A stretch of 64,000 bases of DNA from Deltaproteobacteria bacterium. GTDB taxonomy: Bacteria > Desulfobacterota > WTBG01 > JAGOGO01. Below, one piece after another: positions 44,901 through 64,000 of the stretch. The stretch spans positions 3,403-67,402 of the forward strand of contig JAFGRE010000129.1 in NCBI GenBank assembly GCA_016935335.1, written 5' to 3'. How positions within the stretch are numbered: the first letter of the stretch is position 1; the number at the start of each line of letters is the position of its first letter. Both the position numbers and the translations under genes were made by a program. The notes beneath the pieces were generated by a model. The model saw nothing but the letters and a program-made list of their open reading frames with translations. It was not told the DNA's origin and made no database searches.

Positions 44901-44976
44901 TATTCTTACCAGCGAAAACAGCCAAGACGGCAGGGTAATCAGTTTCAGTGAAAAAAATTGCAGCGTAAATTCTAGC

Positions 44977-45019: not shown

Positions 45020-45114
45020 CAACGACTATAATAAAATAAAAGTGCGTTTCCGATCTGATATAACAATGCGTCGCGTCGTGCGTCCGAATCGAACTGTAAT
45101 GGCGAGAAACCCGA

Positions 45115-46527: not shown

Positions 46528-46614
46528 GCTGAAACCACCATCACCCTTTCCTTTACCCTGACTGATCGACACACCACCTGAAGGCGATTGCGCGTTAGAC
46601 AGGAAGGACGGATC

Positions 46615-48060
46615 ATGGAAAAGGATTATCGCAAAGAAAAAGATCTGCTCGGAGAGCGTGAGGTTCCCGCCGAAAGTCTCTGGGGTATTCATACGCTCCG
46701 AGCTCTGGAGAATTTTCCCTTAAGCCGCCGTCCCGTTCATCCGGAACTGATCAAAGCCTTTGGAACGGTGAAACTCGCTTGCGCCCAGACGAATGGCACG
46801 CTGGGAGCGTGGAATGACAACCCTGCCAAAGGCCGGGCGATTGAGCAGGCCTGCACTGAAATGGCTGCCGGTCATCTTAACGACCAGATCGTTGTCGATA
46901 GCCTGCAGGGCGGAGCCGGTACTTCAACCAACATGAATGTTAATGAAGTGCTCGCAAATCGAGCACTCGAATTATTAGGAGTGTCAAAGGGCAGTTACGG
47001 CATTCTATCACCGCTGGATGATATTAATTTGCATCAATCCACCAACGACACGTATCCTACTGCGCTGAAATTGGCTGCTGTTCGCCTTCTTCATTCTCTC
47101 GAAGAGCAGGTTGTGGCCCTCCAGGAAGCGTTTCAAGCAAAGGAAAAGGAATTTGCTCATGTGGTCAAGGTCAGCCGCACTCAGCTTCAGGATGCGGTAT
47201 TAACCACGTTGGGAAGAGAAATGTCGGCCTATGCCGATGCCCTGGCGCGGGACCGGTGGCGAATCTATAAATGCGAAGAACGCCTGCGGGTGGTTAATCT
47301 CGGAGGCACGGCCATCGGCACGGGGTTGGGAGCGCCACGAAAGTTCATCTTTCGAGTTGTGGATGCGCTACGAGGATTAACGGGAATAGGATTTGCGCGA
47401 GCAGAAAACCTCATCGATAATACGCAAAACGCCGATGTATTCGTTGAAGTTTCCGGAATTCTCAAGGCTCTCGCCGTTACCCTGCTGAAATCGGCAACCG
47501 ATATTCGGCTCATGTCCTCCGGTCCCCAGGCCGGGCTCGGGGAAATTCGTATCCCCGAATTACAGGCCGGATCATCGATCATGCCCGGAAAAGTCAACCC
47601 CGTTATCCCGGAAGCTGTTTCCCAAATTGCAATCCTCGTTATGGCATATGACCAGTCGATCGCTATGGCGGCATCGCTCGGCAATCTCGACCTTAATCAG
47701 TTCTTACCGCTTATCGCCTTCGCCCTCTTGGACAGCCTCACCCTGCTTACCAACGGATGCACCGTCTATCGACAGCTGTGCGTTGAAGGCATAGAAGCCA
47801 ATGAAGCTGCCTGCATCCGGTATGTAGAGGGTTCCACAGCCACCGCCACTGCCTTGGCGACAGTTATCGGTTATGAGAAAACCTCCGAGGTCGTCAAATT
47901 CTCGAAGAAAAACAATATCTCCATAAAAGAAGCAGTCATCTCTCAAGGGATCCTAGACGAAGCGGGCTTTAATGAACTCATCAGCCCGGAGGCGGTAACC
48001 CGCTTGGGTTCATCTACCATCATGCGAGAAAAGGACGATGCAGCAACAATCAACTCGTAA
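46615..48060 (+). CDS. Aspartate ammonia-lyase/fumarase class II family protein embedded in the hyd maturase cluster
   Basis: About 481 aa from the internal ATG at 46615 (ORF-track start 46588); fumarate-lyase signature GSSIMPGKVNPVIPE; 23 nt overlap with the hydF start. Confidence 0.8.
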   Translation: MEKDYRKEKDLLGEREVPAESLWGIHTLRALENFPLSRRPVHPELIKAFGTVKLACAQTNGTLGAWNDNPAKGRAIEQACTEMAAGHLNDQIVVDSLQGGAGTSTNMNVNEVLANRALELLGVSKGSYGILSPLDDINLHQSTNDTYPTALKLAAVRLLHSLEEQVVALQEAFQAKEKEFAHVVKVSRTQLQDAVLTTLGREMSAYADALARDRWRIYKCEERLRVVNLGGTAIGTGLGAPRKFIFRVVDALRGLTGIGFARAENLIDNTQNADVFVEVSGILKALAVTLLKSATDIRLMSSGPQAGLGEIRIPELQAGSSIMPGKVNPVIPEAVSQIAILVMAYDQSIAMAASLGNLDLNQFLPLIAFALLDSLTLLTNGCTVYRQLCVEGIEANEAACIRYVEGSTATATALATVIGYEKTSEVVKFSKKNNISIKEAVISQGILDEAGFNELISPEAVTRLGSSTIMREKDDAATINS

Positions 48061-49285
48061 AGGGCTGAGGCTCCATATTGGTCTTTTCGGACGGAGAAAT
48101 GTCGGAAAATCCAGTCTGCTGAACGCCGTCACCCGGCAGGATGTCTCCATTGTTTCCGATCATGCCGGTACAACGACCGACCCCGTTGAGAAACCCATGG
48201 AGCTGCTGCCCCTCGGCCCGGTACTTTTTATCGACACCGCCGGTATTGATGATGTCGGTGCATTAGGAGAAATGCGAATTGCCAAAACCCGAGGGGTAAT
48301 CGACCGAACCGATCTGGGAGTTATAATCAGTGACGCCGGGATCTGGGGCGATTTCGAAGAACAGATATGGGGAGAATTGAAAAAACGGAATATCCCCATG
48401 ATCGCTGTTTTCAACAAAACCGATCTGGAGGAGCCGGATAGCACTATCCTAACCCGGCTGGAACAGGAAAAGATCGCCATCGTAAAAACCGTAGCTGTTT
48501 CAGGCAAAGGAGTTCTGGACTTTCGCCAGGCGCTTCTCGACACGGTTCCTCCCGAATTCTTAACAAACCCCGATCTCCTGGGAGATATTGTGGGACCCGG
48601 GGAACTGGCGGTTCTGGTTGTTCCCATAGACAAGGAAGCGCCCAAGGGAAGGCTCATCGTGCCGCAGGTTCAGGCTATTCGGAACCTTCTGGACAATGAT
48701 GCGTACTGTATGGTTGTCAAAGAGCGAGAACTCAAATATGCGCTGGAGCGACTGACGGAACCTCCCACACTGGTGGTGACCGATTCACAGGCATTTTTAA
48801 AAGTGGCGGCAGATACGCCGCCGGGTATCAAGATGACCTCTTTTTCAATTCTTTTTGCCCGCATGCAAGGTGACCTGAACGAGATGGTGAGAGGCGCCTT
48901 GGCAATTGAGACGCTCAAGACAGGAGATCATGTATTAGTGGCTGAAGCCTGTTCACACCATCCAATTGCCGACGATATTGGTCGAGTCAAAATCCCTCGA
49001 TGGCTAACGCAGTATGTGGGAGGAAAAGTCCATTTTTATCAAATCCAAGGACACGATTTCCCTGAAGACCTCTCGCCGTATAAGCTCGTTATTCACTGCG
49101 GCGCCTGCATGTGGAACCGCCGAGAAATGCTGTCGCGTATTTTATATTGTCGGAATGCTAAGATTCCCATCACCAACTACGGTTTGACGATCGCTTATGC
49201 CCTTGGTATCTTCGAACGCGCACTTCAACCGTTTCCCGCAGCTTTAGAGGTGTATCATCAGACCCAAAATGATGTCCTTGCCTAA
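48038..49285 (+). CDS. hydF: [FeFe] hydrogenase H-cluster maturation GTPase HydF
   Basis: 415 aa; GTPase G1 GRRNVGKSS and G2/G3 motifs; C-terminal FeS-binding CxH ... HCxxC (CSHHP ... HCGAC). Confidence 0.85.
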   Translation: MQQQSTRKGLRLHIGLFGRRNVGKSSLLNAVTRQDVSIVSDHAGTTTDPVEKPMELLPLGPVLFIDTAGIDDVGALGEMRIAKTRGVIDRTDLGVIISDAGIWGDFEEQIWGELKKRNIPMIAVFNKTDLEEPDSTILTRLEQEKIAIVKTVAVSGKGVLDFRQALLDTVPPEFLTNPDLLGDIVGPGELAVLVVPIDKEAPKGRLIVPQVQAIRNLLDNDAYCMVVKERELKYALERLTEPPTLVVTDSQAFLKVAADTPPGIKMTSFSILFARMQGDLNEMVRGALAIETLKTGDHVLVAEACSHHPIADDIGRVKIPRWLTQYVGGKVHFYQIQGHDFPEDLSPYKLVIHCGACMWNRREMLSRILYCRNAKIPITNYGLTIAYALGIFERALQPFPAALEVYHQTQNDVLA

Positions 49286-50402
49286 TGCGCTTACCCGAGA
49301 AGAAATCATCCGCTGGCTTCATGAGAAAAATGAAGAAAAGCTCCATCAGCTTTGGCAGTGGGCTGATGAGATTAGAACAAGCGTTGTGGGTGATGAAGTT
49401 CATCTCAGAGGCCTCATCGAAATCTCGAATCACTGTTCACGTCGTTGCAGCTACTGTGGAATTAACGCGGGTAACACCTCCCTTGTCCGCTATCGAATGG
49501 AGAAGCAGGAAATCATGGACTGTGTCGACATGGCACAAAAGTTCGGGTATGGCACCGTGGTGATACAAGGCGGCGAAGATTACGGAATAAAAAAAGAGTG
49601 GATGGACGATATCATTCGTGATATTAAATCTCGAACGGACTTGGCAGTTACTCTCAGCCTTGGTGAGCGTCCCATCGACGATCTCGAGATGTGGAGGGCG
49701 GCTGGTGCCAATCGCTACCTGCTCCGCTTTGAAACCTCAGATCGAACGCTCTATGAAAAAATTCACCCTTCCATGAAATCTACAATTTTCGACAGGGTTG
49801 AGATGTTGCGCACCTTGAGAAACATCGGGTATGAAATTGGTGGCGGAATCATGGTGGGAATCCCTGGGCAAACATATGTCTCCGTCTATAATGATTTATG
49901 CACCTTTCAGGAAATGGATCTTGACATGATCGGCGTGGGGCCATATCTCCCCCATCCTCATACGCCCCTTGGAACAGAGGGGGAAGAAATCCGGAAACAA
50001 ACCCCGGACCAAATAGCCAATACCGAGCTTATGACATGTAAGGTCGTGGCCTTGACACGGATTCTCTGTCCGGAAGCCAATATCCCCAGTACTACGGCTC
50101 TCGGAACCATCGACAGACAACTCGGTCGTGTTCATGGCCTCCAAAGAGGCGCTAATGTTCTTATGCCCAATATAACCCCGTTGCACTATCGAAAGTTATA
50201 TGAGATTTATCCGGAAAAGGCTGGAAACGATAGCACTCCCGCGGAGACCGACCAACTGCTCAAGGAGTTGATTGCAGGCCTTGGCAGAAGACGGGGGAAA
50301 GGCCCCGGGGGAAGGTTGCATACTCCCCATCGATCGGAAGAAGACTCCCGGGGATTGCCCGGAATCCATAAACGTATGAGGGGGAGGACCTTGATCACCT
50401 GA
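49269..50402 (+). CDS. hydE: [FeFe] hydrogenase H-cluster radical SAM maturase HydE
   Basis: 377 aa; BioB-like; CX3CX2C (CSRRCSYC); overlaps hydF by 17 nt; unusual basic Gly/Arg-rich C-terminal tail of about 35 aa. Confidence 0.8.
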   Translation: MMSLPNALTREEIIRWLHEKNEEKLHQLWQWADEIRTSVVGDEVHLRGLIEISNHCSRRCSYCGINAGNTSLVRYRMEKQEIMDCVDMAQKFGYGTVVIQGGEDYGIKKEWMDDIIRDIKSRTDLAVTLSLGERPIDDLEMWRAAGANRYLLRFETSDRTLYEKIHPSMKSTIFDRVEMLRTLRNIGYEIGGGIMVGIPGQTYVSVYNDLCTFQEMDLDMIGVGPYLPHPHTPLGTEGEEIRKQTPDQIANTELMTCKVVALTRILCPEANIPSTTALGTIDRQLGRVHGLQRGANVLMPNITPLHYRKLYEIYPEKAGNDSTPAETDQLLKELIAGLGRRRGKGPGGRLHTPHRSEEDSRGLPGIHKRMRGRTLIT

Positions 50403-50449: not shown

Positions 50450-52321
50450 TTGAGAAAAAAGGATAGTGTTTTTATGGACCAAACTGACTCCACTCTTCTT
50501 CCGGTGGAAGAAGAACTAAGAAACCGATTATCCCGTCTCATTAAGCTGCGATGGGTAGCGCTGGAGTGCATCGTCATTGCCATTCTGTTCACCGAGTACT
50601 CCCTCCGTATTCCTCTCCCCACAAAAGAACTCTACAGCATTACTTTAGGAATCTTCTTATACAATACCTTTTTTTTCTTATTTCTTCATACTATCGAAGA
50701 AAAGGGGTCCCCGGTATTAATTCCGCGATTTGCTTTAGTCCAGATCCTTGTCGATTGGTTGGCACTTACTCTCTTCATTCATTACACTGGCGGCATAGAA
50801 AGCCCGGTTATTCTTTTCTTTTTTTTCCATGCGATTCTCTCTATTATTTTACTTCCCACCCAACTCTTTTACTTTCTCTCCACCGTGGGTATCGCTCTGA
50901 TGACGGCCTTGGCGATTTTAGAATACCAGGGAACAATCAGCCATATTACCATTTCCGCATTCGTTTCCGGTCCACGCCATCAGAATCCGATGTTTGTTGT
51001 CGGCATGCTCTTCTTTTTTGCGACCGCTCTCTATGTGTCGACCTATCTTTCAACGGCGATTATTAAAAGATTACGCCTGCGGGACAAAGATCTTATCGAT
51101 CTATTGGAAGACAAAAGACGGGCTTTTGAACGGATTCAAACTCTATACGATTTGAGTTACAAAATGTCCTCAACCTTGGATATAACGGAGATATTAGATC
51201 TGGCGGCACGAGGAACCGTCGAAGTTCTCAATGTCAAAGGCTGTTCTATCAGTGTATTGGATCCTACGCGAAAAAAATATAAGGTAAGCGGAGCCTATGG
51301 TTTGAGCGATACCTATCTCCAGAAAGGTCAACTTGACGTAACAAAGAGTCTTCCTGATGTGCTGAAGGGGAAAGTGGTGTTTGTCCCCGACGTCACTAAC
51401 GATCCCAGACTTCAGTATCCCGAAGAGACCAAGCGGGAGGGGATAGCTTCAATCCTCGGAATTCCCTTGATATTCAAGGGGGAAGTGATCGGGTCCTTGA
51501 GAATACACTCCGCCGAACCGAAGAATTATACCAAGGAAGAACTCGAGTTTATCAATGCCATTGCTAACACGATGAGCCTAGCGATCGCCAACGCCATGGC
51601 TTATAACAAATTGATAGAGTTCGACAAAGCACGATCACGCTTTATGAATATGGTGGCCCATGAGATGAGGGCTCCGGTCGGAGCCATTCAGAATATGCTG
51701 CAAGTTATTCTCAATGGGTACGTGGGGGAAATCACCCCTAAACAACAAGAACTCCTTGGTCGTGCTGAGGCTCGAACCTATTCTTTCCTGGCTATGATAA
51801 ACGATCTTCTCGATCTGGGAAGTCACGAAGCCGAACTCGAAGTCTACACCTTCAGTGATGTATGCCTCCAAGATATCCTGAGCAAGGTTCTGGATTTCCT
51901 GGAAGTACAGATAAGGAATAAGAACCTCACAGTGAAGGTCGAAAAACCTGATGGCCCTCTCGTCGTGAGCGAGGTTGGCGACGATATGGAAAAACTGTTT
52001 ACCAATCTCATCGGAAACGCCATCAAATACTCTCCGTCGAACGGAACCGTTTCGGTCGGTATATCCGTTGACAACGGGATAATAAAAATCGTGATCGCTG
52101 ATACCGGCATCGGCATTATTCTGGAAGACATCCCGCATATTTTCGATGAGTTCTTTCGAGCGAAAAACGCTCGCTTGCTTGAAAAAGAGGGGACAGGCTT
52201 AGGACTCACCATCGTAAAGCGAATCGTAGACCGCTATGACGGCAAAATCTACGTGGACAGCGAACCTGAGAAGGGAACAACCTTCACAGTAATAATCCCC
52301 CAGAATAAATCTCAGCGTTGA
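50450..52321 (+). CDS. Membrane-bound sensor histidine kinase with GAF domain
   Basis: 623 aa. N-terminal polytopic membrane region (about 6 transmembrane helices), then a GAF domain. HisKA H-box MVAHEMRAP and HATPase_c N/G boxes (GNAIKYS, DTGIGI, GTGLGL) complete the kinase. Confidence 0.85.
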   Translation: MRKKDSVFMDQTDSTLLPVEEELRNRLSRLIKLRWVALECIVIAILFTEYSLRIPLPTKELYSITLGIFLYNTFFFLFLHTIEEKGSPVLIPRFALVQILVDWLALTLFIHYTGGIESPVILFFFFHAILSIILLPTQLFYFLSTVGIALMTALAILEYQGTISHITISAFVSGPRHQNPMFVVGMLFFFATALYVSTYLSTAIIKRLRLRDKDLIDLLEDKRRAFERIQTLYDLSYKMSSTLDITEILDLAARGTVEVLNVKGCSISVLDPTRKKYKVSGAYGLSDTYLQKGQLDVTKSLPDVLKGKVVFVPDVTNDPRLQYPEETKREGIASILGIPLIFKGEVIGSLRIHSAEPKNYTKEELEFINAIANTMSLAIANAMAYNKLIEFDKARSRFMNMVAHEMRAPVGAIQNMLQVILNGYVGEITPKQQELLGRAEARTYSFLAMINDLLDLGSHEAELEVYTFSDVCLQDILSKVLDFLEVQIRNKNLTVKVEKPDGPLVVSEVGDDMEKLFTNLIGNAIKYSPSNGTVSVGISVDNGIIKIVIADTGIGIILEDIPHIFDEFFRAKNARLLEKEGTGLGLTIVKRIVDRYDGKIYVDSEPEKGTTFTVIIPQNKSQR

Positions 52322-52391: not shown

Positions 52392-52997
52392 CTATTCTGG
52401 CGAAGCTTCCGCTGTCCGGGGAACAACCGCATCTTCTCCTGAAAGAAGCTCAACCAAGCAGTCAATGCTTCTTTTCACCCGCCGGGAAAAACCCTGCACA
52501 AAACCGACCCGCTCAGGTTGAATCGCCACCACCACGGTTTTGCTTCCGCTTTGTTCCCATAAGGTGAGAAGGCTCTTGAGAGGCAGCCGATGGGTAGAAC
52601 ATAAGAGGGATTTCGGAAGGTCTTGGACGCTCAGCACGGCGATGCTGCCCGGCTCAGCCTGAAGATCAACAGCGTCCACCGCAATAATCACCTTCGGTTT
52701 GAGATCCAGAATCCGTACGAACCAGTCTTCCGGCGATTCGCCCGCATCCACAAAGATCCGTTCCCCTTCCACAGGGAACTGCCCCACCTGCTTTTGCCAT
52801 CGTTCATTCAGTTGCCCGGCGACTTCGGGTCCGACCCCGTCATCCTCACGGAGCCGGTTGCCGATGCCGAGAACGACCACCCGTCCCGGATATCCTGGAT
52901 GAACGAGAGCGGCAAGCGATTCCAAGGTCAGCAGAGCGTCTTCCTTCCTGGTCATATTGGTCCAAATTTGGGAATTATACCTGACTCGAGCGAACAA
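52392..52997 (-). CDS. [NiFe] hydrogenase maturation endopeptidase (HycI/HyaD family)
   Basis: VVVLGIGNRLREDDGVGPEVA and IIAVDAVD motifs of the HycI/HybD protease family. The true start is probably the internal ATG at about 52955. Confidence 0.75.
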   Translation of the reverse strand: MFARVRYNSQIWTNMTRKEDALLTLESLAALVHPGYPGRVVVLGIGNRLREDDGVGPEVAGQLNERWQKQVGQFPVEGERIFVDAGESPEDWFVRILDLKPKVIIAVDAVDLQAEPGSIAVLSVQDLPKSLLCSTHRLPLKSLLTLWEQSGSKTVVVAIQPERVGFVQGFSRRVKRSIDCLVELLSGEDAVVPRTAEASPE

Positions 52998-53924
52998 CTA
53001 CCGGGGTACGCCCGACTCATGAGAAGCATCGAAAGGCGCAGAAAAAAGTCCGTATGACACCAGGAGGTCTTCAAATTCACGATAGTCATCCGCTGAGGCA
53101 GGAGCAAAGCCGGAAATTCTCAAACGTTCAAGGATAAAACGATGCGAAGCGTTCCCAAGGTCGAGTTGAAGTAAAGCGGTTTTCACGTTTCTCACCAGAT
53201 CCGAATCAGCATCCGGGAAGCTGACAAAGCACGGATTGGGATAATACTGCGTGATCGCAAGCACCGTAACGTTTGGCACCGCTCCCTTTGCTTTCGTAAG
53301 GGCCTGGAGAACGTCTTCTCGGACGAAGCCGACCTCCGCTTGACCCAACGCTATTTTCTCAAAGATCTCCTCTTGGGTATCTCCGAATATGAATTTCACA
53401 TCCCGTTCCGGTTCCAGACCGCATTCCTTAAGATGCATCCATTGAGCAAGAAATCCGCACACATTTGAACGAGAGGAAGCAAGAACCGACTTCCCTCGCA
53501 GGTCGTTAATTGATCCTATCGGACTTTTAGGATGGATGATGATCAAACCCCGGTATTCGGTTCGGCCATCAAGCGAGACTGCTTTAACCAGGGGGACCGC
53601 TCCGTACTGCATTTTGAGAATAAGGTAATAATACGGGTTCACCAGGGAAAGAGCAAACCGTTCCGTTTCCACAAGAGAAGTCAATGATTCCATTTCAGGC
53701 GGAGCACAGACCATATCCATTTCCCAGCTGGTTTCTTTCGTCAAATAATCCATCAGAAAAATAAACCGCGCCTCCATCATGAGGAAGGAAAACGGCCCCG
53801 GATGCACAAGGATTTTTGCTTTTCCGCGAACGGGTGAGATTGGCTCACAGCCGACTGACCCGAAAATCACCGCGGCAATGAGAATGCATAGAAGCAACTG
53901 GCAGGCAAATAAACACCTTCTCAT
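52998..53924 (-). CDS. Periplasmic substrate-binding lipoprotein (PhnD/SsuA-like PBP fold) encoded inside the hydrogenase operon
   Basis: 308 aa; signal peptide with lipobox (VIFGSVGC); PBP type 2-like pattern. Start overlaps the NuoB-like stop by 4 nt and the stop abuts the hycI start. Confidence 0.5.
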   Translation of the reverse strand: MRRCLFACQLLLCILIAAVIFGSVGCEPISPVRGKAKILVHPGPFSFLMMEARFIFLMDYLTKETSWEMDMVCAPPEMESLTSLVETERFALSLVNPYYYLILKMQYGAVPLVKAVSLDGRTEYRGLIIIHPKSPIGSINDLRGKSVLASSRSNVCGFLAQWMHLKECGLEPERDVKFIFGDTQEEIFEKIALGQAEVGFVREDVLQALTKAKGAVPNVTVLAITQYYPNPCFVSFPDADSDLVRNVKTALLQLDLGNASHRFILERLRISGFAPASADDYREFEDLLVSYGLFSAPFDASHESGVPR

Positions 53925-54430
53925 TTATATTCCCTTTGGGCTTGCTCGAATTTTTTCAGTATTTCTTCAGGATGGCTTTGGGTCATGGTTATGGGAGCAA
54001 CCTTTTTGGAAGCAAGACCCAACGCCACCGCAACGCCATAAAGAATTGCCTCCGGCCGGGGTGGGCAACCTGGGATGAAATAATCTACCGGAAGCACTGT
54101 ATCCAACCCACCCAGCGTGGCGTAACTGTCAAAAAATACGTTACCCCCGGTCGGGCAACTGCCGATTGCAAACACCAGCTTTGGATTGGGGACAGCTTCG
54201 TAAACCCGCCGAAGGGCCGGGGCTATCTGCCGGGTCACCGGTCCGGAGACCAAGAGCACGTCGGCATGGCGGGGAGAGCCAACCAACTTGATTCCGAATC
54301 GCTCAGCGTCATAATAAGGCGTAAGAACATTGATGACCTCAATGTCACAGCCGTTACAGGCGCCCGCATTGACATGGTATACCCACAGAGATTTAGGAAA
54401 TGCCTTTGCACACAGTTTCTTGAGCATCAT
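53921..54430 (-). CDS. Group 4 [NiFe] hydrogenase small subunit (NuoB/HycG/HyfI-like)
   Basis: 169 aa; proximal 4Fe-4S ligands CNGCD, GSCPTGG, PGCPP. Confidence 0.85.
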   Translation of the reverse strand: MMLKKLCAKAFPKSLWVYHVNAGACNGCDIEVINVLTPYYDAERFGIKLVGSPRHADVLLVSGPVTRQIAPALRRVYEAVPNPKLVFAIGSCPTGGNVFFDSYATLGGLDTVLPVDYFIPGCPPRPEAILYGVAVALGLASKKVAPITMTQSHPEEILKKFEQAQREYK

Positions 54431-54436: not shown

Positions 54437-55927
54437 CTACGGCATCGCTACCATAGAAAAAATCGCTTTGGTAGCTTCGTATAACAAGGGATACAATATT
54501 TGTGGAAACACGCCGATGACAACACACAATAACGACAGAATCACCATCCCTCCCCACATTGCCGGCGGCACCTCCGTTATCTTTTTTTTGCTTAGGTTCT
54601 GAGGCAACGCGCCCATAAAAACGTTATACGAGGCATGAATAAAGGCTGCCAAGGTCAGTATGGCAACGAGGACGGCAATCACCGTCGCCCAGGCATGGCC
54701 GGCTTTTACCCCGGCCAAGAACAGCGTAAATTCACTCATGAACCCGTTAAACAAGGGGATACCGCCCAAAGCCAACGCTGCCACAAAAAACGTCAATCCG
54801 GTAAGAGGCATTACCTTCCCCAACCCTCCCAGTTCGGAGATGCGACGACTCCCAGTTGCATAAATGACACCGCCGAAGCTAAAAAAGGCCAAGGCCTTCA
54901 TCAAGGAATGGTTGACAAGGTGAAAGAGGGCCCCGTAAATTCCCAGGTAGTTCCCGAGGCCAAGACCCATGATAATAAAACCGATGCTCACGACCGAACA
55001 GAATGCCAGAAGCCTTTTCATATCTTCCTGAAAAAACATCATCAGCACACCCACAATCATAGTAATAACACCTAAGATAAGAACGAGAGGGCTGATGACG
55101 GGATAAAAGGGATACAGTATCAAAACGGTGCGGATTATGGCATAGACCCCTACCTTGATCATCACGCCCGAGAGAAGAGCGCTTACAGGAGTAGGGGCTT
55201 CGGCATGAGCATCCGGCAGCCAGGTGTGGAAAGGAACAATCCCCGCCTTGGTTCCAAAGCCGGCCAGCAAAAGAACAACCGATAACAGAGCAATGCTCTT
55301 GGGAATTTTACCGGCCACCTTGGCAATCTCGGTGATCTTGAGAGGATCAAGGCCGCTGGGGATATGCGGCGAGGAGCCAGCATACAGGAGGACGCACCCA
55401 AAAAGTGCAAACGTAATTCCCACCGTGAGCAGCATTGCATATTTATATCCCGCTTCCAACGCATCCCGGTTCCAGTAGAAGGCAACCAGGATTACCGAAG
55501 CCAGGGTGGTCGCCTCAATAATCACCCACAGCAAGATAATATTGTTGGTAGTAGAGGCCCAGAGCATGGAAGCCAAAAACAGCATGATCCAGCCGTAGTA
55601 GGAATGAAACCGTTCGCGAGGGATAACACCTCGTTCCGTCTCTTTCCGTATGTAGGGCAGAGAATAAACGACCGCGATCACTCCGAGAAAGGCGACCATT
55701 CCGGCAATCAATCCTCCCAAGGCATCCACTCGGAATTCCTCGCGAAAGAGAGACAAAATTTCCCCTTGGGTCGTCTGAATCAGGATCTTGCAGGAGACGA
55801 CAAATGTCAGAGCGGATCCGATGACAGCGCTTCGTTCAGCAAAAAGCCGGGATCGTTTTCCGACGAGGAAAATCAAGACCCCGGTGAGAGCTGGTATTAA
55901 AAAAAGGTACAGTATCTCAAGATTCAT
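54437..55927 (-). CDS. Membrane antiporter-like subunit (NuoN/NuoM / HyfF-HyfD family)
   Basis: 496 aa, about 14 transmembrane helices; complex I ND2/4/5 family pattern. Confidence 0.8.
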   Translation of the reverse strand: MNLEILYLFLIPALTGVLIFLVGKRSRLFAERSAVIGSALTFVVSCKILIQTTQGEILSLFREEFRVDALGGLIAGMVAFLGVIAVVYSLPYIRKETERGVIPRERFHSYYGWIMLFLASMLWASTTNNIILLWVIIEATTLASVILVAFYWNRDALEAGYKYAMLLTVGITFALFGCVLLYAGSSPHIPSGLDPLKITEIAKVAGKIPKSIALLSVVLLLAGFGTKAGIVPFHTWLPDAHAEAPTPVSALLSGVMIKVGVYAIIRTVLILYPFYPVISPLVLILGVITMIVGVLMMFFQEDMKRLLAFCSVVSIGFIIMGLGLGNYLGIYGALFHLVNHSLMKALAFFSFGGVIYATGSRRISELGGLGKVMPLTGLTFFVAALALGGIPLFNGFMSEFTLFLAGVKAGHAWATVIAVLVAILTLAAFIHASYNVFMGALPQNLSKKKITEVPPAMWGGMVILSLLCVVIGVFPQILYPLLYEATKAIFSMVAMP

Positions 55928-55951: not shown

Positions 55952-56617
55952 TCACCACCGTAAGCCCTTAAGCTGAAAGGTGTCGGTGGAGCCGAATTTT
56001 TGGTATACGCCAAAAATCACGTAAAGAAGAAGGTAGACCGCAATCACTACATCAGTAACAATGCCGATGATAGCCGTCTCCTTTAAGAGTGGAGACAAGC
56101 TGACGAGCGAGAGATGAACACCGTTTTCCAGTATAAGAAGGCCGTGAACGGTTTTAATGGCATCCCGCCTCACGAGGATGCAGTAAAGACCCATGACAAA
56201 GATGGTGAGACTCACGGCCAAGTTTGTTCGAAACGGTTCTTCGCTGGCGGCGGGGGTGGGAGCAATGAACTCCCCATACTGATGCGTCAGTCGGTAGAAT
56301 ATAATGACAATGACACTGATCAACAAAATCGACCCCAGGTATCCAATCAGGGGAGGGAACTCTCGATTCGTCGTCCGACGGATGTACCGCAAGAGAAGGT
56401 AAGGAATTACAACTACCTTGGTAATAAAGGCGGTAATCGCCCAGTAGTAGAGACCGGGATTTTGGTTCGCAAAGGCCACGAAAAGACTGCACATCAAGAC
56501 GGCCTGAAGCATGTAAGCATAAGCGGAATAGCGGAGGTTCCTGAGTTCAATAACCAAATATGAAGTAATGATAAGGGAAAGGCTTATTGTGGGAATATAC
56601 ATTGTCAATTGTTCCAT
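55952..56617 (-). CDS. Hydrogenase-4 component E-like membrane subunit (HyfE family)
   Basis: 221 aa polytopic membrane protein in the conserved position of Hyf-type operons. Confidence 0.6.
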   Translation of the reverse strand: MEQLTMYIPTISLSLIITSYLVIELRNLRYSAYAYMLQAVLMCSLFVAFANQNPGLYYWAITAFITKVVVIPYLLLRYIRRTTNREFPPLIGYLGSILLISVIVIIFYRLTHQYGEFIAPTPAASEEPFRTNLAVSLTIFVMGLYCILVRRDAIKTVHGLLILENGVHLSLVSLSPLLKETAIIGIVTDVVIAVYLLLYVIFGVYQKFGSTDTFQLKGLRW

Positions 56618-56671: not shown

Positions 56672-57121
56672 CTATTTCCCTTCGCTTTGATTTCTGAATC
56701 CGGTCACCATCATCTTATCCAAGGGGCTTGCGGGCTTAAAACAACGACCGCAGCGACCGCACGGACCCATATAGAGTTCGGTCCGAATGTAGAGATCATC
56801 ATTGAGATTGGTGGCAAGTTGGTATTCGCGCGTCATGGCAATCGCATCCTCGGGACACACCTCGGCACATCGACCACAATAAGTGCAGCGTTTAAGGAAA
56901 TACTCAATAATTCGCTGAGGACCATCGTCAGTAATTTCAATCAAGCGGGCCGGGCAGACATTGGCACAGCCGCCACAGCCGATGCACTTCTCCACATCAA
57001 CCGCTATCTTACCCCGATACCAATCGCCGGGGGGATGCGGCTCCGGACCCAAGGGAAAAGCGGCCGTGACTCTCCCTGCCTTCAGACAAATCAATGCTTC
57101 CTTCAGTTTGCTCATAAACAT
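56672..57121 (-). CDS. 2x[4Fe-4S] ferredoxin subunit (NuoI/HycF/HyfH-like)
   Basis: 149 aa; two CxxCxxCxxxCP motifs (CIGCGGCANVCP, CTYCGRCAEVCP). Confidence 0.85.
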   Translation of the reverse strand: MFMSKLKEALICLKAGRVTAAFPLGPEPHPPGDWYRGKIAVDVEKCIGCGGCANVCPARLIEITDDGPQRIIEYFLKRCTYCGRCAEVCPEDAIAMTREYQLATNLNDDLYIRTELYMGPCGRCGRCFKPASPLDKMMVTGFRNQSEGK

Positions 57122-57138: not shown

Positions 57139-58044
57139 TTAAACCCCGATCAGGGCAAAGGCGATTGCGAAAACAAGCACAACCCAGATCCCGATAAAGT
57201 ACCGAACCGCTTGGTCAATACGTATTCGAGGATTAACAGCATCAATCACACCGACCAATGCAATCACCACTAAAACCTTGACAAGATTAATGAGGATGTC
57301 AACAGGGATGACGCCGGTTTTGGGCCAGGGAATAAATACTTCGAGAAAAAGTGACGCCAAGATGATCTGCTTGGCAAAGTAGCTCCATTTGTATAAAGCC
57401 AACGAAGGCCCCCCCGCCTCTATGAAAGGCCCTCCCATGATTTCCTGATCGGCGTCGGGTATGTCAAAGGGAAGTTTGCCAAGCTGAACCTGGAGAACCA
57501 AGAAGAAGGGGATTGCGGCAATCACCATGGAAAGAACGGGACCGCTTTCTCGATACCAGGAAGAGATATGCATGAGGTCAAAAGAGTGGCTGTGAATAAC
57601 AGCGACGATAAGGCTGCCGACGACAATAATCTCCACAACCATGGCGAGCATCATTTCTCGTGCCGTTCCTAAAGCGCCGTAAGGATTCCCGGTGGAGGTG
57701 CCGCCCAGCATGATCCCTACCGAGGCCAGCGCAAGGAAATAGACAAGGACGATCAGATCGCCGGCAAAGCCCAGGGGGGGGCTTGCTCCCATAGGGGTAA
57801 GGAGAGCGGCAACCAAGACGCTTCCGAAGGTGAGAACCGGCGCGAAAGAGAAAAGGGGATTACCTCCTACCTCAAGCCGCTCCTTGCCGAGCAGCTTGAG
57901 GAGGTCAAGATAAGGTTGCCGAAGCGGGGGCCCCTTGCGGGAATGTACGACTGCTTTAAGTTTTCGAATTACTCCTTCATAGAACGGCGCGACAATAATC
58001 ACGAGAAGGAGATTGACTATTGCGAGGGAAATAGTGGTCGTCAT
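57139..58044 (-). CDS. Membrane subunit NuoH/HycD/HyfC-like
   Basis: 301 aa; complex I subunit 1 family; 8 transmembrane helices; 4 nt overlap with the large subunit. Confidence 0.85.
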   Translation of the reverse strand: MTTTISLAIVNLLLVIIVAPFYEGVIRKLKAVVHSRKGPPLRQPYLDLLKLLGKERLEVGGNPLFSFAPVLTFGSVLVAALLTPMGASPPLGFAGDLIVLVYFLALASVGIMLGGTSTGNPYGALGTAREMMLAMVVEIIVVGSLIVAVIHSHSFDLMHISSWYRESGPVLSMVIAAIPFFLVLQVQLGKLPFDIPDADQEIMGGPFIEAGGPSLALYKWSYFAKQIILASLFLEVFIPWPKTGVIPVDILINLVKVLVVIALVGVIDAVNPRIRIDQAVRYFIGIWVVLVFAIAFALIGV

Positions 58045-59732
58045 TTTCTGTTTATCGTTTTCTCCCGGCTCAGTTCCGTTAATTCTTCATTGGTATAAAT
58101 CCGGATTGCGCCTCTTTTCCGATCCACCACCTCCAGCCGTTCGGTACAGGAGAAGCAGGGATCGTAACTCGCTATCGATATGGGCACGTCAGCCAGTTCC
58201 TGCCCCATGATCATGGCCGGCACCGAAGCCAGATTCATGTAACTGGGCGCTCGGACCTTCCATCGATAGGGGCGGTTGTTTTCTCCCGTAAGAACATAGT
58301 GGACCGATTCTCCCCGAGGGGCCTCTACAACCCGTACGCCCTCCTTTCCCGGGGGAATCTCTTCGGGGATGTTTGCCATAATCGATCCGTCGGGGAGTTC
58401 TTGAACCCCCTGACGGACTAGACGAATCGATTCCAGTGTCTCCTCCAGGCGAACAAGAGTCCGGGCCAGGTTATCGCACCCCTTCTGGACTTTCTTTTCC
58501 GGAACCAGATAATCATACGCACAGTAAGGATGATCAACCCGCGAATCAATCGCCACGCCGGAACCTCGGGCGGTCGGCCCGGTGACACAATAGTCCACAG
58601 CATCAGCATGGGAGAGCACTCCGACGCCCTCAAGGCGCATCATGAGGGGAGTATCTCCTTGAATTGCGTCGATGACCTTGAGCCACTCTTTTTCAATCCG
58701 ATCAACCACCTCCAGGATCTTTGGTTTCTGCGCAGCAGTAATATCCCGGCGCACACCGCCGATCAAGTTCATGCCGTAAGTTTTCCGATTCCCGGTAATT
58801 TCCTCACAAAGCCACATAACCGGCTCTCGAATGCGCCAGGTCTGCATCAACACGGTATCGAATCCCAGGACATGACCGCCTATTCCCAACCAAAGGAGAT
58901 GAGAGTGAATCCGCTCCAGTTCGAGCAGAACGCTTCGAATATATCTCGCTCGGATGGGAACCTCAATTTCAGCAGCTTCTTCTATGGCCTCACAGTAACA
59001 CGTACTGTGTATATATCCTCATATGCCTCATATGCGCTCGGCCAGAAATGAGGTTTGATTGTAGGTGAGGGCTGAATCCCCTATTTTTTCAATACCCCGA
59101 TGGCTGTAGAAGCCACGATAATCACAACCGACGACGGTCTCCCCTTCTACAAATACACGAAAGACCGCCGGTTCCTCCAGGACCGGGAAGAACGGCCCAA
59201 TGGGAATCACCGTGGCGTTCTCCGGCGGGGCAAGCGGTTTCGGCGCAAGCCCTTCCACGGGCTCAGGACGACGGTCATAGGAGAAATCCTTCCGCAAAGG
59301 ATAGACATTGTCCGGCCAATCATCCGGAAGAATCAAACGGCGCGGATCAATGTGACCATTAAAGGTGATACCAACCAGATCCCGAACTTCCCGCTCGATC
59401 CAATTAGCTCCGGGGATTATCGGGGTCAGGGAGTCAATCTCGGGAGTATCCTTATCCAACGATGCTTGAAGCAACAGAAAAATCCTCTCCGCATCGAAGG
59501 AAAAGATATACGTCGTCTGAAAGTCCCGATGCGTAGGCCGTCGATCAACCCCGACGATGGTATTAAATCGAGCCCCCATCCCCCGGAACAGATATTCCGC
59601 CAATGTTCGAATGCGTTCGCGACGGATGTCCGCATAAATAGTCCGGGGCACCGGCTCCCGGGCGGAGATAATATCCGTCGGGAACTTGGCCTTCAGATCA
59701 TCGATCAAACTCCTGCCGATCTCAAAAACCAT
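58041..59732 (-). CDS. Fused NuoC/NuoD-like [NiFe] hydrogenase large subunit (HycE/HyfG-like) with two in-frame TGA codons, putative selenocysteines, at both Cys positions of the N-terminal RxCGxC Ni-binding motif
   Basis: ORF-track ORFs 59028..59732 and 58041..58889 are in the same frame; only two TGA codons lie between them. Minus-strand codons 59030-59028 and 59021-59019 read AERI-TGA-GI-TGA-GYIHSTCYCEAIEEAAEIEVP, which aligns with the HycE-type AERICGICGxxHSTAYC motif. C-terminal Ni ligands DPCFSC are intact. NuoC-like domain sits at the N-terminus. AAGGAGAG ribosome-binding site before the ATG at 59732. Confidence 0.6.
58991..59009 (-). other. Candidate bacterial SECIS-like hairpin downstream of the two UGA codons
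   Basis: mRNA CACAGUA-CGUGU-UACUGUG: 7 bp perfect stem, 5 nt loop containing GU. It begins 9 nt after the second UGA and 18 nt after the first, a spacing compatible with SelB-dependent decoding. Confidence 0.4.
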
Positions 59733-59818: not shown

Positions 59819-61870
59819 TTACATGAGCGTTAACCAGACAATAACCGCCACTACCAGGATAAACCCGATCACCTGAAAAAGCATATACACTTGAGGAATT
59901 CCTACATGAGTTCTCCGGAACATCTCGGAAAACCGAAGCATGGCAGTAACGAGGGGATAAAATAGTACCTTGTCAAAGTCTATTCCCCTGTAAATCCGCT
60001 CCGGTTTCTTCAGATGAATCGGGGGGGCCTCCCAGGAAACCAAGCGTTCGAAATGAGACGCCAACGGGAGGTAGAAGCTTTGAGCGCGGTATCGCACTTC
60101 GTCGGTATCGTACACCTCCCCGCAATTCCATATCGGAACCGACCGACTTTCCGGTGATCCCACCCGGGAGATGATAACCGCAACCATGAGACACCCACCA
60201 AAGACCAGGAGCCCCATAAGCGGAAACCAGACACCCGCTTGGACTCCTCCCATCATGGGAATCAAGCCAATTTCCGACATGCCGAAGACGGATGAAAGGT
60301 GGGGAAGGGAATTTCCGTAAAGTGAACCGGTAAGGCCGGCGTGAATCATCTGTAAAGGGATCCACGGAAAGAGACCAAGGAGCACGCAAAGAAGTGCAAA
60401 TATATTCTGAGGAATCCGCATGGTGTATGGAACATCAAGACCGGGCCGTAAGCTGGTTTCCAATTCGCTGCCCATCTCCCCCCCAAAGCATGTGCCGAAA
60501 AACTTGATGAAGTATGCAATCGTTACAGTACTGATAAAAATTGCCACTACCCCGAAAAGAATAAACACCGGAACGCTGATTCCTCCAATTATGGTTGTTT
60601 GATAGATCAGCCACTTGCTCACAAACCCGTTAAACGGCGGCATTCCCGCGATTGACAACGCAGCTATGAGCGTAACCCAGGCAGTCAGCGGCATAACGGA
60701 ATAAAGGCCGCTCAGTCGGTTCAAATCTCGAGTACCCGTCTTATAAAGAATCGCCCCGGCATTTAGAAAAAGGAGCCCTTTAAAAACAGCATGGTTCACC
60801 AGGTGATACATGCCGGCCATGGTAGCCACCACCGAAAGGAGCGGGTTGATTTCATAAAATGCCAATCCGGTACCGATACCCAAAAGGATGTATCCCATCT
60901 GGCCGATTGACGAAAACGCCAGCAAGCGCTTGAAGTCATGCTGCAAAAGGGCGGAAACAGTGCCCATAAACAAGGATACTGCCCCACATGCAGCGATCAC
61001 AATGCCCCACGCAAACGTGTGCGTTGAAACCGGCAAGAGGAAGAAGAAAAACCGGACGAATCCATAGACACCCATCTTGATCATAACTCCGGAGAGCATT
61101 GCCGAAACTCCCGAAGGCGCGGCCGGATGAGCATCTGGAAGCCATCCTCCCACCGGATACATACCGGCCTTGGTGCCGAAGCCGAGGACGAACAGTCCCA
61201 GGACAAATGAGAGTTGAACCGGATGGGCCTCGACCATTCCCGAGAGAGCCTCCCGCAAAGCGGCAAAGGCAAAGGAACCAACCCGTGTTTGGAGAAGGAT
61301 CGCTCCGATGAACATGGCGGCCGTTCCCACATGGGTCATGATGAAGTACTTGAGGCCGGCCCTGAGGACGACCTGATCCTCTTTTTCATAAATTACCAGG
61401 AAGTAAGACGTAAGAGTCATAAACTCCCAGAAAACAAAAAAGAAGAACATGTCGGAAACCGAAACCACCCCAACCATCCCGGCGATGAACAGTATAAGGC
61501 AATGATAGAACCGGGCGATGCCCTGTGACGGATAGAGGTCCATATATCGAAAGGAGTAGAGCGTGCCCGCAAAGGAGACCAAACCAATAATAACCAAAAA
61601 AAGGGCGCTGAGATAATCCACCGATACCGTCAACTCCGCTCCCAGAGACGGGATCACCATAAGCGGCTTCGAAAGATTGCGGGGGCCTCCCGTAAAGACC
61701 CGATAGGCAACACAGAAAAGGATCCCTGACATAATGGTAACCGTACCAACCCCAATGGTACCGCACAGTCGCCGGGAGCGCCTGGTCAGCGCCGTAAGAA
61801 TCAACCCAAGGATAATCGTGGCAGCAAAAAGGGTTATCATAAACACCGTCGTTCCCCCTTTAAAAATCAA
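59819..61870 (-). CDS. Large antiporter-like membrane subunit (NuoL/MrpA/HyfB family)
   Basis: 683 aa, about 16-18 transmembrane helices; ND5/NuoL-type pattern. Confidence 0.8.
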   Translation of the reverse strand: MIFKGGTTVFMITLFAATIILGLILTALTRRSRRLCGTIGVGTVTIMSGILFCVAYRVFTGGPRNLSKPLMVIPSLGAELTVSVDYLSALFLVIIGLVSFAGTLYSFRYMDLYPSQGIARFYHCLILFIAGMVGVVSVSDMFFFFVFWEFMTLTSYFLVIYEKEDQVVLRAGLKYFIMTHVGTAAMFIGAILLQTRVGSFAFAALREALSGMVEAHPVQLSFVLGLFVLGFGTKAGMYPVGGWLPDAHPAAPSGVSAMLSGVMIKMGVYGFVRFFFFLLPVSTHTFAWGIVIAACGAVSLFMGTVSALLQHDFKRLLAFSSIGQMGYILLGIGTGLAFYEINPLLSVVATMAGMYHLVNHAVFKGLLFLNAGAILYKTGTRDLNRLSGLYSVMPLTAWVTLIAALSIAGMPPFNGFVSKWLIYQTTIIGGISVPVFILFGVVAIFISTVTIAYFIKFFGTCFGGEMGSELETSLRPGLDVPYTMRIPQNIFALLCVLLGLFPWIPLQMIHAGLTGSLYGNSLPHLSSVFGMSEIGLIPMMGGVQAGVWFPLMGLLVFGGCLMVAVIISRVGSPESRSVPIWNCGEVYDTDEVRYRAQSFYLPLASHFERLVSWEAPPIHLKKPERIYRGIDFDKVLFYPLVTAMLRFSEMFRRTHVGIPQVYMLFQVIGFILVVAVIVWLTLM

Positions 61871-61912: not shown

Positions 61913-63427
61913 TTACCTGACCCCTTCCAAGAAAGGGATCCCCAATAAAGGAGCTGCCAAGGTCAGGATCACCAAAGCCCCCAGTACCAGCTTGATAGCA
62001 AAGGGAAATGCAAACGTTTCACCGGCTTCACGCGGTTCACCGAAAAAGACCCGCTGGGTCACAACAATAAACCAAATGAAAGCGCCGACGGATTCTCCCA
62101 AAACCAGGATGCCCAAAATAACCCCGAAGGTTGACCGAAGCTCAAAGGCTCCCACCACAATGAAAAACTTGCTCCAGAAACACGAGAAGGGCGGGATGCC
62201 GGTTACCGATAAAACGCCGGTTATAAACGCTCCTGCCAAAAGCGGAGAGCTTCCGGCAAGGCCGGATAATCGGGAGATGAGGCGTGTGCCGGCGGCATAG
62301 GAGATCGCGCCGACCGACAAAAAGAGAAGCGTCTTGGCGAACGCGTGACAGAGCAGATGCAGCAAACCGCCCCGGAGCCCTACCAGTGACCCGGCCGCCC
62401 CGAGGCCCAATCCCAAGAAGATATACCCCACGTTGGAGATGGTGGAGTAGGCCAAAAGCCGCTTCAAGTCATCTTGCACGAAGTAAAAAACAAGCCCCAT
62501 AAACATTGTTATAATGGCAACAGTGGCGGTCAGGAGTCCGATTCCGCTCCCCACTTCAAAACCTGCCGTAAATACCCGGGCGATCAGAAAAGCCCCGGCC
62601 TTCACCATTGCCGCCGCGTGAAGATATGCTGAAATGGGAGTGGGCGCCACCATGGCGTCAGGTATCCAGGTATAAAAGGGTCCCTGCGCTGACTTAGCCC
62701 AGCCCGCCAGAAGCAGGCAGATCAGAACCATGACTTTTATGGTACCCGGGAGTCTGCCGATACTGGCAAACTCGAAACTGCTGGTATACACAAAAATAAA
62801 CGCCAGCCCAACGATAAAAAAGAGGCCCGGAATGTGGGTCATCAGAAGCGCCTTAAAACCGGAACGAAACGATGTTTCATCTTCATAAAAGGCAATGAGG
62901 GCGGCAGAACAAATGGTGGTGAGTTCCCAGAAAATCAAAAACTGGAGGAGATTGGGCGAAAGCGCGAGTCCGATCATCGAAAAGATGAAGAACAGCAGCC
63001 ATGCATAGTATCGAACGAATCCCGATGTCACCGGATGTTCACGGTTTTTGCTGCTCAGGTACCCATTGGAAAAGAAAACCACCAGAAAACCGATAACCAC
63101 GGTGACGACCAACATCAACACGGAGAGGGGATCGAGGACCGCTCCGAAGAGCTTCGACTCGGTCCTGATCCACGGCATCCGGCCGAAGAGGAAGAACGCG
63201 GGAGGTTTTCCCAGGCTTTGTACAATAACTCCTCCTGCAGCCACCAGCGTGGCGAGCGCCGATAACGATGCCAGCCGGCTTGCCCGTTCACCCTGAAAGC
63301 ACGAGGGAAATCCTGTCAGGAGAAGAAGAACGCCTGCCAGCGGAAGAAGAAACACCAACGCAAGCCAAACTGTCATACTGTTGCTCCCGTTCCGTGTTGC
63401 CGATTCCCAATGCGGACAGACCGTCAC
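61913..63427 (-). CDS. Second antiporter-like membrane subunit (NuoL/NuoM / HyfB-HyfD family)
   Basis: 504 aa polytopic membrane protein. The true start is probably the ATG at about 63377 (MTVWLALVFLL). Confidence 0.75.
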   Translation of the reverse strand: MTVCPHWESATRNGSNSMTVWLALVFLLPLAGVLLLLTGFPSCFQGERASRLASLSALATLVAAGGVIVQSLGKPPAFFLFGRMPWIRTESKLFGAVLDPLSVLMLVVTVVIGFLVVFFSNGYLSSKNREHPVTSGFVRYYAWLLFFIFSMIGLALSPNLLQFLIFWELTTICSAALIAFYEDETSFRSGFKALLMTHIPGLFFIVGLAFIFVYTSSFEFASIGRLPGTIKVMVLICLLLAGWAKSAQGPFYTWIPDAMVAPTPISAYLHAAAMVKAGAFLIARVFTAGFEVGSGIGLLTATVAIITMFMGLVFYFVQDDLKRLLAYSTISNVGYIFLGLGLGAAGSLVGLRGGLLHLLCHAFAKTLLFLSVGAISYAAGTRLISRLSGLAGSSPLLAGAFITGVLSVTGIPPFSCFWSKFFIVVGAFELRSTFGVILGILVLGESVGAFIWFIVVTQRVFFGEPREAGETFAFPFAIKLVLGALVILTLAAPLLGIPFLEGVR

Positions 63428-63448: not shown

Positions 63449-64000
63449 TCAGACCACCCGCTCCGGCAACTTCATCATTTCCCGATAGGAAAAAACCGGT
63501 CCGTCCAGACATACATACTTGTGCCCGATAGCACAGTGCCCGCACTTTCCGACACCGCACTTCATGTATCGCTCCAAGGTGGAGATAATGTTCGCGGGGG
63601 CGAAGCCGAGACGCAGCAGTTCCATGATGGCAAACCGTATCATGATGGGCGGCCCGCAAACAAAGGCTACGGTGTTGTCGACAATGATGTCAGCTTTCGG
63701 GAAAATGGTCGTCACCACCCCCACATTCCCGGACCAACCTGAATCACCCACGTCAACCGTCATCATGAACCGAACGTCCTGCATCGTTTCCCATTCTTTG
63801 AGACGGTTTTTATACACGAGATCGGCCGGACTCCGGGCACCATAAAGAATCTGAACGTCTCCGAATTCCGACCGGGCATCGAGCATCGGTTCAATCAGCG
63901 AGCGGAGGGGAGGAAGGCCGATGCCCCCGGCCACGAAAAGAACGTTCTTCCCCTTGATCTCGTCAAAGGGAAAACCGTTTCCGAAGGGACCGCGCACACC
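63449..64000 (-). CDS. FAD/NAD(P)-binding oxidoreductase subunit with C-terminal 2Fe-2S cluster (PyrK / sulfide dehydrogenase SudB / hydrogenase gamma-subunit-like). The 5' end lies outside the window.
   Basis: C-terminal 182 aa visible; NAD-binding GGIGLPP motif; 2Fe-2S Cys cluster CGVGKCGHC...C typical of the PyrK family. Only 21 nt separate it from the next gene. Confidence 0.75.
   Translation of the reverse strand, partial: GVRGPFGNGFPFDEIKGKNVLFVAGGIGLPPLRSLIEPMLDARSEFGDVQILYGARSPADLVYKNRLKEWETMQDVRFMMTVDVGDSGWSGNVGVVTTIFPKADIIVDNTVAFVCGPPIMIRFAIMELLRLGFAPANIISTLERYMKCGVGKCGHCAIGHKYVCLDGPVFSYREMMKLPERVV

Follow-up and report, generated by a model that had tools for sequence, protein, structure and literature searches.

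Two in-frame UGA codons at the N-terminal metal-ligand positions of a group 4 [NiFe]-hydrogenase large subunit are conserved recoding sites and probably specify selenocysteine

We analyzed a 64,000-nucleotide stretch of DNA (here called the window; positions 3,403 to 67,402 of the forward strand of contig JAFGRE010000129.1, from the Deltaproteobacteria bacterium assembly GCA_016935335.1, phylum Desulfobacterota), in which the gene for the catalytic large subunit of a membrane-bound, energy-converting group 4 [NiFe]-hydrogenase (58041..59732, minus strand) is interrupted by two in-frame UGA codons. The UGAs occupy the ligand positions of the N-terminal metal-binding motif (L1), are deeply conserved, lie in a translated frame and are tied to a UGA-specific RNA hairpin that is under constraint at the RNA level. 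We conclude that they are real, conserved recoding sites and, judging from the sequence comparisons described below, that the residue is almost certainly selenocysteine (Sec, U). Translation of both codons by the pathway that depends on SelB and a selenocysteine insertion sequence (SECIS) is the probable explanation. The type of enzyme has been described before: UXXU-type group 4b hydrogenases were reported, in silico only, by Takano, Inoue, Aono, Ochi and Mihara (Front Microbiol, 3 Sep 2026; PMC13582414), and the window gene is a member of this already known class. To the 16 non-redundant UXXU proteins of that study we add 47 metagenomic contigs with 42 distinct versions of the 84-nt UGA/hairpin region, a minimum of synonymous-site variation at the hairpin, a constant position of the G-U in its loop, a Cys-type sister gene with an identical hairpin, and Sec-containing formate dehydrogenase (FdhA) genes beside three UXXU genes.

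The frame running from 59732 to 58041 on the minus strand comprises 563 sense codons and has two internal stops, both TGA, at codon 235 (59028..59030) and codon 238 (59019..59021), with a start-to-start distance of 9 nt. Its read-through product is a polypeptide of 563 amino acids (with U235 and U238) that contains the peptide ...TYNQTSFLAERI-UGA-GI-UGA-GYIHSTCYCEAIEEAAEIEVPIRARYIRSVLLELERIHSHLL, just as quoted in the initial annotation, which had described a fused NuoC/NuoD-type (HycE/HyfG-like) large subunit broken by nothing else. Pfam matches to Complex1_30kDa (PF00329), NiFeSe_Hases (PF00374) and Complex1_49kDa (PF00346) all fall on this one polypeptide, the best solved relative of which is Escherichia coli HycE (7Z0S_E, E=2.5e-123, phmmer). 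The HycE alignment places both UGA positions on the two Cys residues of DRVCGICGFAHSTAY, the first UGA on the first and the second UGA on the second Cys of the L1 CxxC, which bears out the initial assignment of the UGAs to the ligand cysteines; the UGAs likewise align with both L1 Cys residues of Pyrococcus furiosus MBH (6CFW_L). The position of codon 235 is a terminal Ni ligand, both by homology to HycE and according to PMC13582414, and that of codon 238 would, by homology, be a ligand that bridges Ni and Fe.

With respect to the four metal ligands of such a subunit, the L1 motif RxCGxCxxxH is present with UGA at both Cys codons, and the C-terminal Ni-binding motif (L2, DPCxxC) is intact as DPCFSC (amino acids 524-529; 58146..58163, minus strand). 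The latter has Cys, not Sec, and hence differs from the DPUxxC of classical [NiFeSe]-hydrogenases. A C-terminal extension of 32 residues follows DPCFSC (after ...CTER), as expected for endopeptidase processing, and the operon closes with a gene for a HycI-type protease. Public annotation reads the first TGA as a stop: the NCBI record MBN2467872.1, from a metagenome-assembled genome (MAG) named 'Deltaproteobacteria bacterium', ends after the first 234 amino acids (59028-59732, minus strand) and bears the name 'NADH-quinone oxidoreductase subunit C'. The next possible start codon downstream of the second UGA is codon 282, and the stretch between the two is translated, because the protein is conserved there with synonymous variation.

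Relatives of the gene were collected in two scans, one of a single genome per GTDB species, which gave 52 related loci, and one of metagenomes for the codon pattern GARMGNATHTGAGGNATHTGAGGNNNNNNNCAY, for which we estimate that a handful of matches would arise by chance. Every GTDB locus with a readable L1 encodes CGIC, with one exception (L019), a Thermodesulfobacteriota MAG with 78% amino acid identity, which reads ERI-TGA-GI-TGA-GYIHSTCYC in an otherwise open frame. The metagenome scan returned 47 contigs, and in 47/47 the match lies in the same gene and the same frame, with ERI-TGA-GI-TGA-G. TGA is therefore found at both positions in 48/48 related UXXU loci (L019 and the 47 contigs), which are 64-76% identical to the window at the DNA level. 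Where the contig allows, their frames are open for ~230-250 codons upstream and 325-370 codons downstream of the UGAs, except in L093. The sole exception, L093 (Ga0172364_10013307, ~5287-5497), has 70 open codons upstream; in place of the NuoC-like domain it carries AT-rich sequence that has no open frame on that strand, and it could represent a chimeric assembly, a rearrangement or a variant in which the two parts are unfused.

Both TGAs are kept among 29 full-length UXXU sequences whose pairwise protein identity goes down to 55%. Relatives with Cys at both positions number 158, and orthologs with either UGA or Cys, for which the initial annotation had called, are both at hand (29 full-length TGA..TGA sequences against 158 C..C relatives). 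The Sec types are interleaved with the Cys types: L053 and L057, both of the Sec type, share 81-82% identity with the Cys-type protein P0100 but only ~60% with the window protein. Selenoprotein families typically show such a mosaic of Sec and Cys at a catalytic position, and it rules out a pseudogene or a sequencing error. We also note a codon bias beside the UGAs (alignment columns 16-33, window 59033-59016), in that Ile before the first UGA is AUA in 26/29 sequences and Gly after it is GGG in 26/29; AUA-to-AUC changes preceding the two UGAs often co-occur. This bias may reflect an effect of context on recoding or termination.

Downstream of the UGAs lies a SECIS-like hairpin with a perfect 7-bp stem (58991..59009, minus strand), in which CACAGUA (59009-59003) pairs with UACUGUG (58997-58991) around the loop CGUGU (59002-58998), and which overlaps the codons H-S-T-C-Y-C-E as far as the first base of E. 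The stem starts 9 nt past the second UGA and 18 nt past the first, and the loop has its G residues at 18 and 20 nt downstream of the second UGA, or 27 and 29 nt downstream of the first. The first two bases of the loop are the C and G of the ACG codon for Thr244, as in the UXXU sequences of PMC13582414, where the third base of an ACG Thr codon supplies the apical-loop G in group 4b. The hairpin geometry matches the published description of the bacterial SECIS, with a stem of 6-8 bp and a conserved loop G ~20 nt after the UGA (PMC4605307), and it fits the second UGA. Across bacterial SECIS elements, the spacing of this G ranges over about 16-37 nt and is typically ~20 nt. Two other structures were considered and rejected: a longer helix between upstream CUGGCC and downstream GGCCA is not conserved in the other sequences, and a small CAUAUG...CAUAUG hairpin across both UGAs is specific to the window.

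All of the distinct UXXU sequences (42/42) fold a hairpin of 5-8 bp, with minimum free energies of -4.5 to -11.9 kcal/mol, and, counted from the U of the second UGA, the loop starts at 20-22 nt, with a G as its first or second base. Such a hairpin is found in 3/46 distinct Cys-type sequences (Fisher p=6e-22, uncorrected for phylogeny); Cys types that encode the same HSTCYC peptide mostly use CAT TCC ACC TGC TAT TGC, which is unable to pair. In one lineage (L055, L056 and L058), the stem is kept by a compensatory change from U-A to C-G, with the peptide changing from STCYC to STVCC, and the group of L061 has a shifted 5-bp stem with the loop AGUU, in which the G-U is again at nt 23-24. The position of the loop G-U is constant across the three hairpin variants. 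Further, synonymous variation reaches its minimum at this point: normalized codon entropy averages 0.82 across the 321 informative columns of the 29 full-length genes, and among all 7-codon windows along the gene the one with the lowest value (0.24) is Y-I-H-S-T-C-Y, which is the hairpin. Among the Cys types, L001 (Armatimonadota MAG DTZQ01000206.1) has a partial 5-bp hairpin, CACAG...CUGUG, and has lost the loop G (ACC Thr codon); to judge from its sequence, it looks like a SECIS that decayed after reversion to Cys.

Canonical Sec sites are found next to UXXU genes. In L061, L066 and L078, an adjacent formate dehydrogenase gene carries the site NVDHCARL-TGA-HSS (L061, ~4956-4390, minus strand; L066, ~4024-3425, minus strand; L078, ~75-650, plus strand), which indicates that Sec decoding operates in operons with UXXU hydrogenases. 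In L019, which is of the window's own lineage, the neighboring formate dehydrogenase-like protein (2634-4376) reads DGTYRFGGAS at the Sec site and is thus without the Cys or Sec ligand to Mo. According to PMC13582414, selABCD (at least 3 of the 4 genes) is present in ~90% of Sec-type genomes.

We infer from these observations that decoding depends on SelB, that one SECIS serves both codons and that the residue is Sec rather than Cys. The in-frame hairpin at 58991-59009 (minus strand) would act as the SECIS and recruit SelB.GTP.Sec-tRNASec to the approaching ribosome. A first delivery would take place at codon 235, when the hairpin is still ~18 nt ahead, by a preceding and separate SelB event that most likely uses the same hairpin, and a second delivery would follow at codon 238, where the loop G has the canonical distance of ~20 nt. 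The predicted product would have one terminal Ni-selenolate, one selenolate bridging Ni and Fe, and two C-terminal Cys ligands.

Several points weigh against this interpretation. The class is known from sequences alone, that is, in silico. Folding of the single sequence (58-131 nt around the UGAs) gave z scores of -0.2 to -1.0, not above shuffled sequence, and Rfam returned no family match around the UGAs at E<=10 and none window-wide at gathering thresholds; the case for the hairpin is consequently purely comparative. The initial annotation had counted on a SECIS that scores above background, and the single sequence does not do so, although the comparison of UXXU with Cys types gives strong evidence for the hairpin. 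Most pairs of the stem do not vary and just one shows covariation; RNAalifold recovered only the 5 inner pairs with a covariation term of almost nil; as an invariant stem makes for weak covariation statistics, we rely on the contrast with Cys types and on the entropy of synonymous sites. The Cys-type gene of L101 (Ga0315314_1019744, gene 1309-2991, encoding P0100) has an identical hairpin, CACAGUACGUGUUACUGUC, with UGU and UGC replacing the UGAs, which means that the hairpin alone is no proof of recoding; this gene is apparently a very recent Sec/Cys switch in which the SECIS is still intact. The first UGA lies 9 nt beyond the canonical hairpin spacing. None of selA, selB, selD and tRNA-Sec was found within the 64-kb window, and ARAGORN found tRNAs neither in the window nor in 49 loci. 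Finally, tRNA-ReC, which reads a SECIS-dependent UGA as Cys, occurs in ~56% of UXXU genomes compared with 2.3% of other Sec-type genomes (PMC13582414), and insertion of Cys is therefore possible.

This last point leads to a reading in which the UGAs are recoded through SECIS and SelB as proposed above, with tRNA-ReC (selC*, a long tRNA with a UCA or GCA anticodon and a U73 discriminator, charged by CysRS) placing Cys at one or both of them, so that the enzyme would have an ordinary or a mixed Cys/Sec [NiFe] center, possibly in dependence on selenium supply. We regard it as unlikely, although the authors of PMC13582414 consider that either UGA may be read as Cys and report tRNA-ReC in 2/6 Desulfobacterota UXXU genomes, and L101, as a close Cys-type sister with an intact hairpin, shows that Cys is functionally acceptable at both positions. 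If Cys were the product, UGU or UGC would be the cheaper codon, yet both TGAs are kept at 55% identity; moreover, no tRNA was found in any fetched locus, and a canonical Sec-FdhA adjoins three of the UXXU genes. The Sec2Cys2 center put forward in the initial annotation accordingly stands as far as UGA at both N-terminal ligands is concerned, whereas one or both positions could carry Cys. A more elaborate version, in which the single 19-nt SECIS programs two successive SelB deliveries three codons apart and, in hosts that also carry tRNA-ReC, the UGAs are divided between Sec and Cys according to selenium supply, seems to us decidedly doubtful; its ingredients (one SECIS for two UGAs, Cys at UGA) were raised as possibilities in PMC13582414. 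If it were true, the ligand set of the Ni-Fe center (S4, S3Se or S2Se2) would be fixed at translation.

Very improbable, in our judgment, is that only the second UGA is efficiently read as Sec and that the first is subject to near-cognate suppression or acts mostly as a stop, with full-length protein being rare and the 234-amino acid NuoC-like fragment the main product. The distance of 27-29 nt between the first UGA and the loop G, instead of ~20 nt, would be in keeping with it, as would the efficiency of recoding at a single UGA in E. coli, given as 30-40% in PMC4513850. At such an efficiency per event, the yield of full-length protein would be low, and that both TGAs have nevertheless persisted points to a selective advantage. 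In 48/48 loci the first TGA is unchanged, at an essential Ni ligand, where Trp or another near-cognate residue would kill the enzyme; UxxU motifs are predicted in other bacterial selenoprotein families; and CXXU and UXXU types share the same SECIS architecture (PMC13582414). That the gene is a pseudogene, or that the TGAs stand for TGT/TGC misread in sequencing or assembly, is refuted, and we give it next to no weight even though public annotation splits the gene into the 234-amino acid fragment of MBN2467872.1. The lesions fall exactly on the two ligand codons and nowhere else in the gene or operon, an independent assembly (Logan, run SRR13394437) agrees with the window at 100% of 14,635 nt, both TGAs included, and both recur in 48 further contigs, which come from many samples and have 64-76% nucleotide identity. 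The initial annotation was right to argue against decay. Genome-wide reassignment of TGA, e.g. to Trp or Gly, is refuted outright: TGA terminates 19/60 predicted window genes, which means that the genetic code is not reassigned, and no other window gene has an in-frame TGA in a conserved frame. A search of the window for other selenoprotein candidates (an in-frame TGA between long open segments) gave none that was convincing. Insertion of Sec at both UGAs by way of SelB and the SECIS thus remains the probable reading.

The large-subunit gene belongs to a set of 11 minus-strand genes from 63997 to 52392, all of them intact apart from the one cut by the window end, in line with the initial description of an undamaged operon of about 11 genes. 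The set provides the partners that define a group 4 enzyme, i.e. a small subunit, NuoH-like and antiporter-like subunits, a ferredoxin and a maturation protease. Upstream of the large subunit, in the direction of transcription, are the 3' part of a FAD/NAD-binding [2Fe-2S] subunit homologous to P. furiosus SHI-gamma (63449..64000; NAD_binding_1 and DHODB_Fe-S_bind), which is cut by the window end, and two antiporter-like membrane subunits of the NuoL/HyfB type (59819-61870 and 61913-63427; Pfam). Downstream of it are a HyfC/NuoH-like membrane subunit (57139..58044; Pfam), a 2x[4Fe-4S] ferredoxin subunit of the HyfH/NuoI type (56672..57121; Pfam), a HyfE/NuoK-like membrane subunit (55952..56617; Pfam), an antiporter-like membrane subunit of the HyfF/NuoN type (54437..55927; Pfam), the NuoB-like hydrogenase small subunit (53921..54430; Oxidored_q6) and, in the last position, the HycI-type maturation endopeptidase (52392..52997; PF01750), all on the minus strand. 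A periplasmic-binding-protein-like gene (52998..53924, minus strand; Phosphonate-bd, Pfam E=6e-43) is inserted between the small-subunit gene and hycI, and a gene of the same kind occupies the same place in the L019 operon (15824-16792).

The cluster of L019 is syntenic, and its upstream genes encode the formate dehydrogenase-like protein without the Mo ligand, a Fer4_22 protein and a SHI-gamma-like subunit, accompanied by a SHI-beta-like subunit. In the window, the SHI-gamma-like gene is visible at the edge and the cluster continues beyond base 64000. Many UXXU clusters of PMC13582414 similarly contain SHI-gamma and SHI-beta homologs and a formate dehydrogenase-like protein without the Mo ligand. 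We provisionally assign the subunit to group 4b on the strength of the motif, SECIS and cluster type that it appears to share with the 4b UXXU sequences of that study. The label "Hyf-type" given to the enzyme in the initial annotation consequently holds in the sense of a membrane-bound, energy-converting group 4 hydrogenase but not in that of an E. coli-type Hyf: the cluster includes a SHI-gamma-like subunit, and such enzymes are filed as 4b in PMC13582414.

The initial annotation also knew of no described hydrogenase with an N-terminal Sec, a view that is out of date. PMC13582414 lists 47 Sec variants of group 4 in which Sec always lies in the N-terminal motif; 16 of them, from Desulfobacterota, Armatimonadota, JAPLJL01 and Acidobacteriota, are of the UXXU type, which belongs to group 4b. 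CXXU cases at the N terminus, known earlier from groups 1 and 3, are attributed there to Baltazar et al. 2011. The same study proposes that one SECIS serves both UGAs. The window gene has the motif R-I-U-G-I-U-G in the N-terminal site of the fused large subunit in common with the UXXU group 4b enzymes, has the same SECIS with the loop G at the third base of Thr ACG, and matches them in phylum (Desulfobacterota) and in cluster (SHI-gamma-like and antiporter-like subunits, HycI), and we see no essential difference. With E. coli Hyd-3/HycE (7Z0S/7Z0T) and Hyf (Hyd-4) it shares the fusion of NuoC and NuoD, both ligand motifs (L1 and L2), a C-terminal extension together with a HycI protease, and a membrane arm of NuoH/NuoL-like subunits. 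HycE, however, has Cys at all four ligand positions, whereas the window gene has UGA at two, and the partner is not a standard FdhF but SHI-gamma-like here and, in L019, also SHI-beta-like together with the formate dehydrogenase-like protein. Replacement of a Ni-ligand Cys by Sec is common to the classical [NiFeSe]-hydrogenases (group 1a Hys of Desulfomicrobium/Desulfovibrio; group 3 Fru/Vhu of Methanococcus), which have a single C-terminal Sec as a terminal Ni ligand; the window gene, in contrast, has two N-terminal recoded sites, one terminal and one bridging.

With regard to the RNA element, the window hairpin and the fdhF-type SECIS of E. coli are both short hairpins within the open reading frame, with an apical-loop G(U) ~20 nt past the UGA (PMC4605307). 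Unlike the fdhF element, the window has one hairpin apparently for two UGAs 9 nt apart, with no evident bulged U and no Rfam match. Counted from the second UGA, the loop G-U of the window falls at nt 22-24, in agreement with G23/U24 of fdhF. Other predicted UxxU selenoproteins (a Prx-like protein, the FmdB family and a putative mercuric-reductase metal-binding protein; PMC13188914, PMC2398784) likewise have two UGAs two codons apart in a CxxC-type motif; these are thiol-oxidoreductase or metal-binding proteins, in which the residues are not hydrogenase active-site ligands, and they are known by prediction alone.

Elsewhere in the window, a second hydrogenase system (40861-50402, plus strand) stands back to back with the group 4 operon and comprises genes for a response regulator, a NuoE/NuoF-like HydB fusion and an [FeFe]-hydrogenase HydA with a NuoG-like N terminus, followed by a radical-SAM/BATS protein (HydG-like), a fumarase/aspartase-family lyase, HydF and a radical-SAM protein (HydE-like). 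A GAF histidine kinase gene (50450-52321) lies between the two hydrogenase systems. At 25308-27439 (minus strand), a gene for a FdhD/NarQ-family sulfurtransferase adjoins one for a class-V aminotransferase (cysteine-desulfurase-like), which suggests that a molybdo- or tungsto-formate dehydrogenase is matured in the organism. A 449-codon open frame that runs off the window start (3-1349, minus strand) had no Pfam match at E<=1e-5.

Overall, annotation that splits UXXU genes, as in the record named 'NADH-quinone oxidoreductase subunit C', causes surveys of predicted proteins to miss or misname these hydrogenases. To our knowledge, a bridging selenolate is found in no natural hydrogenase studied so far, and single Cys-to-Sec swaps, which Evans and colleagues reportedly engineered in E. 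coli Hyd-1 in 2021, are said to be the sole route to such chemistry to date. The UXXU gene offers a natural test case of how a single bacterial SECIS can serve two differently spaced UGAs. Should Sec be inserted at both codons, a proton-pumping hydrogenase related to complex I would have a natural [NiFe] center in which one selenolate is terminal and the other bridging.

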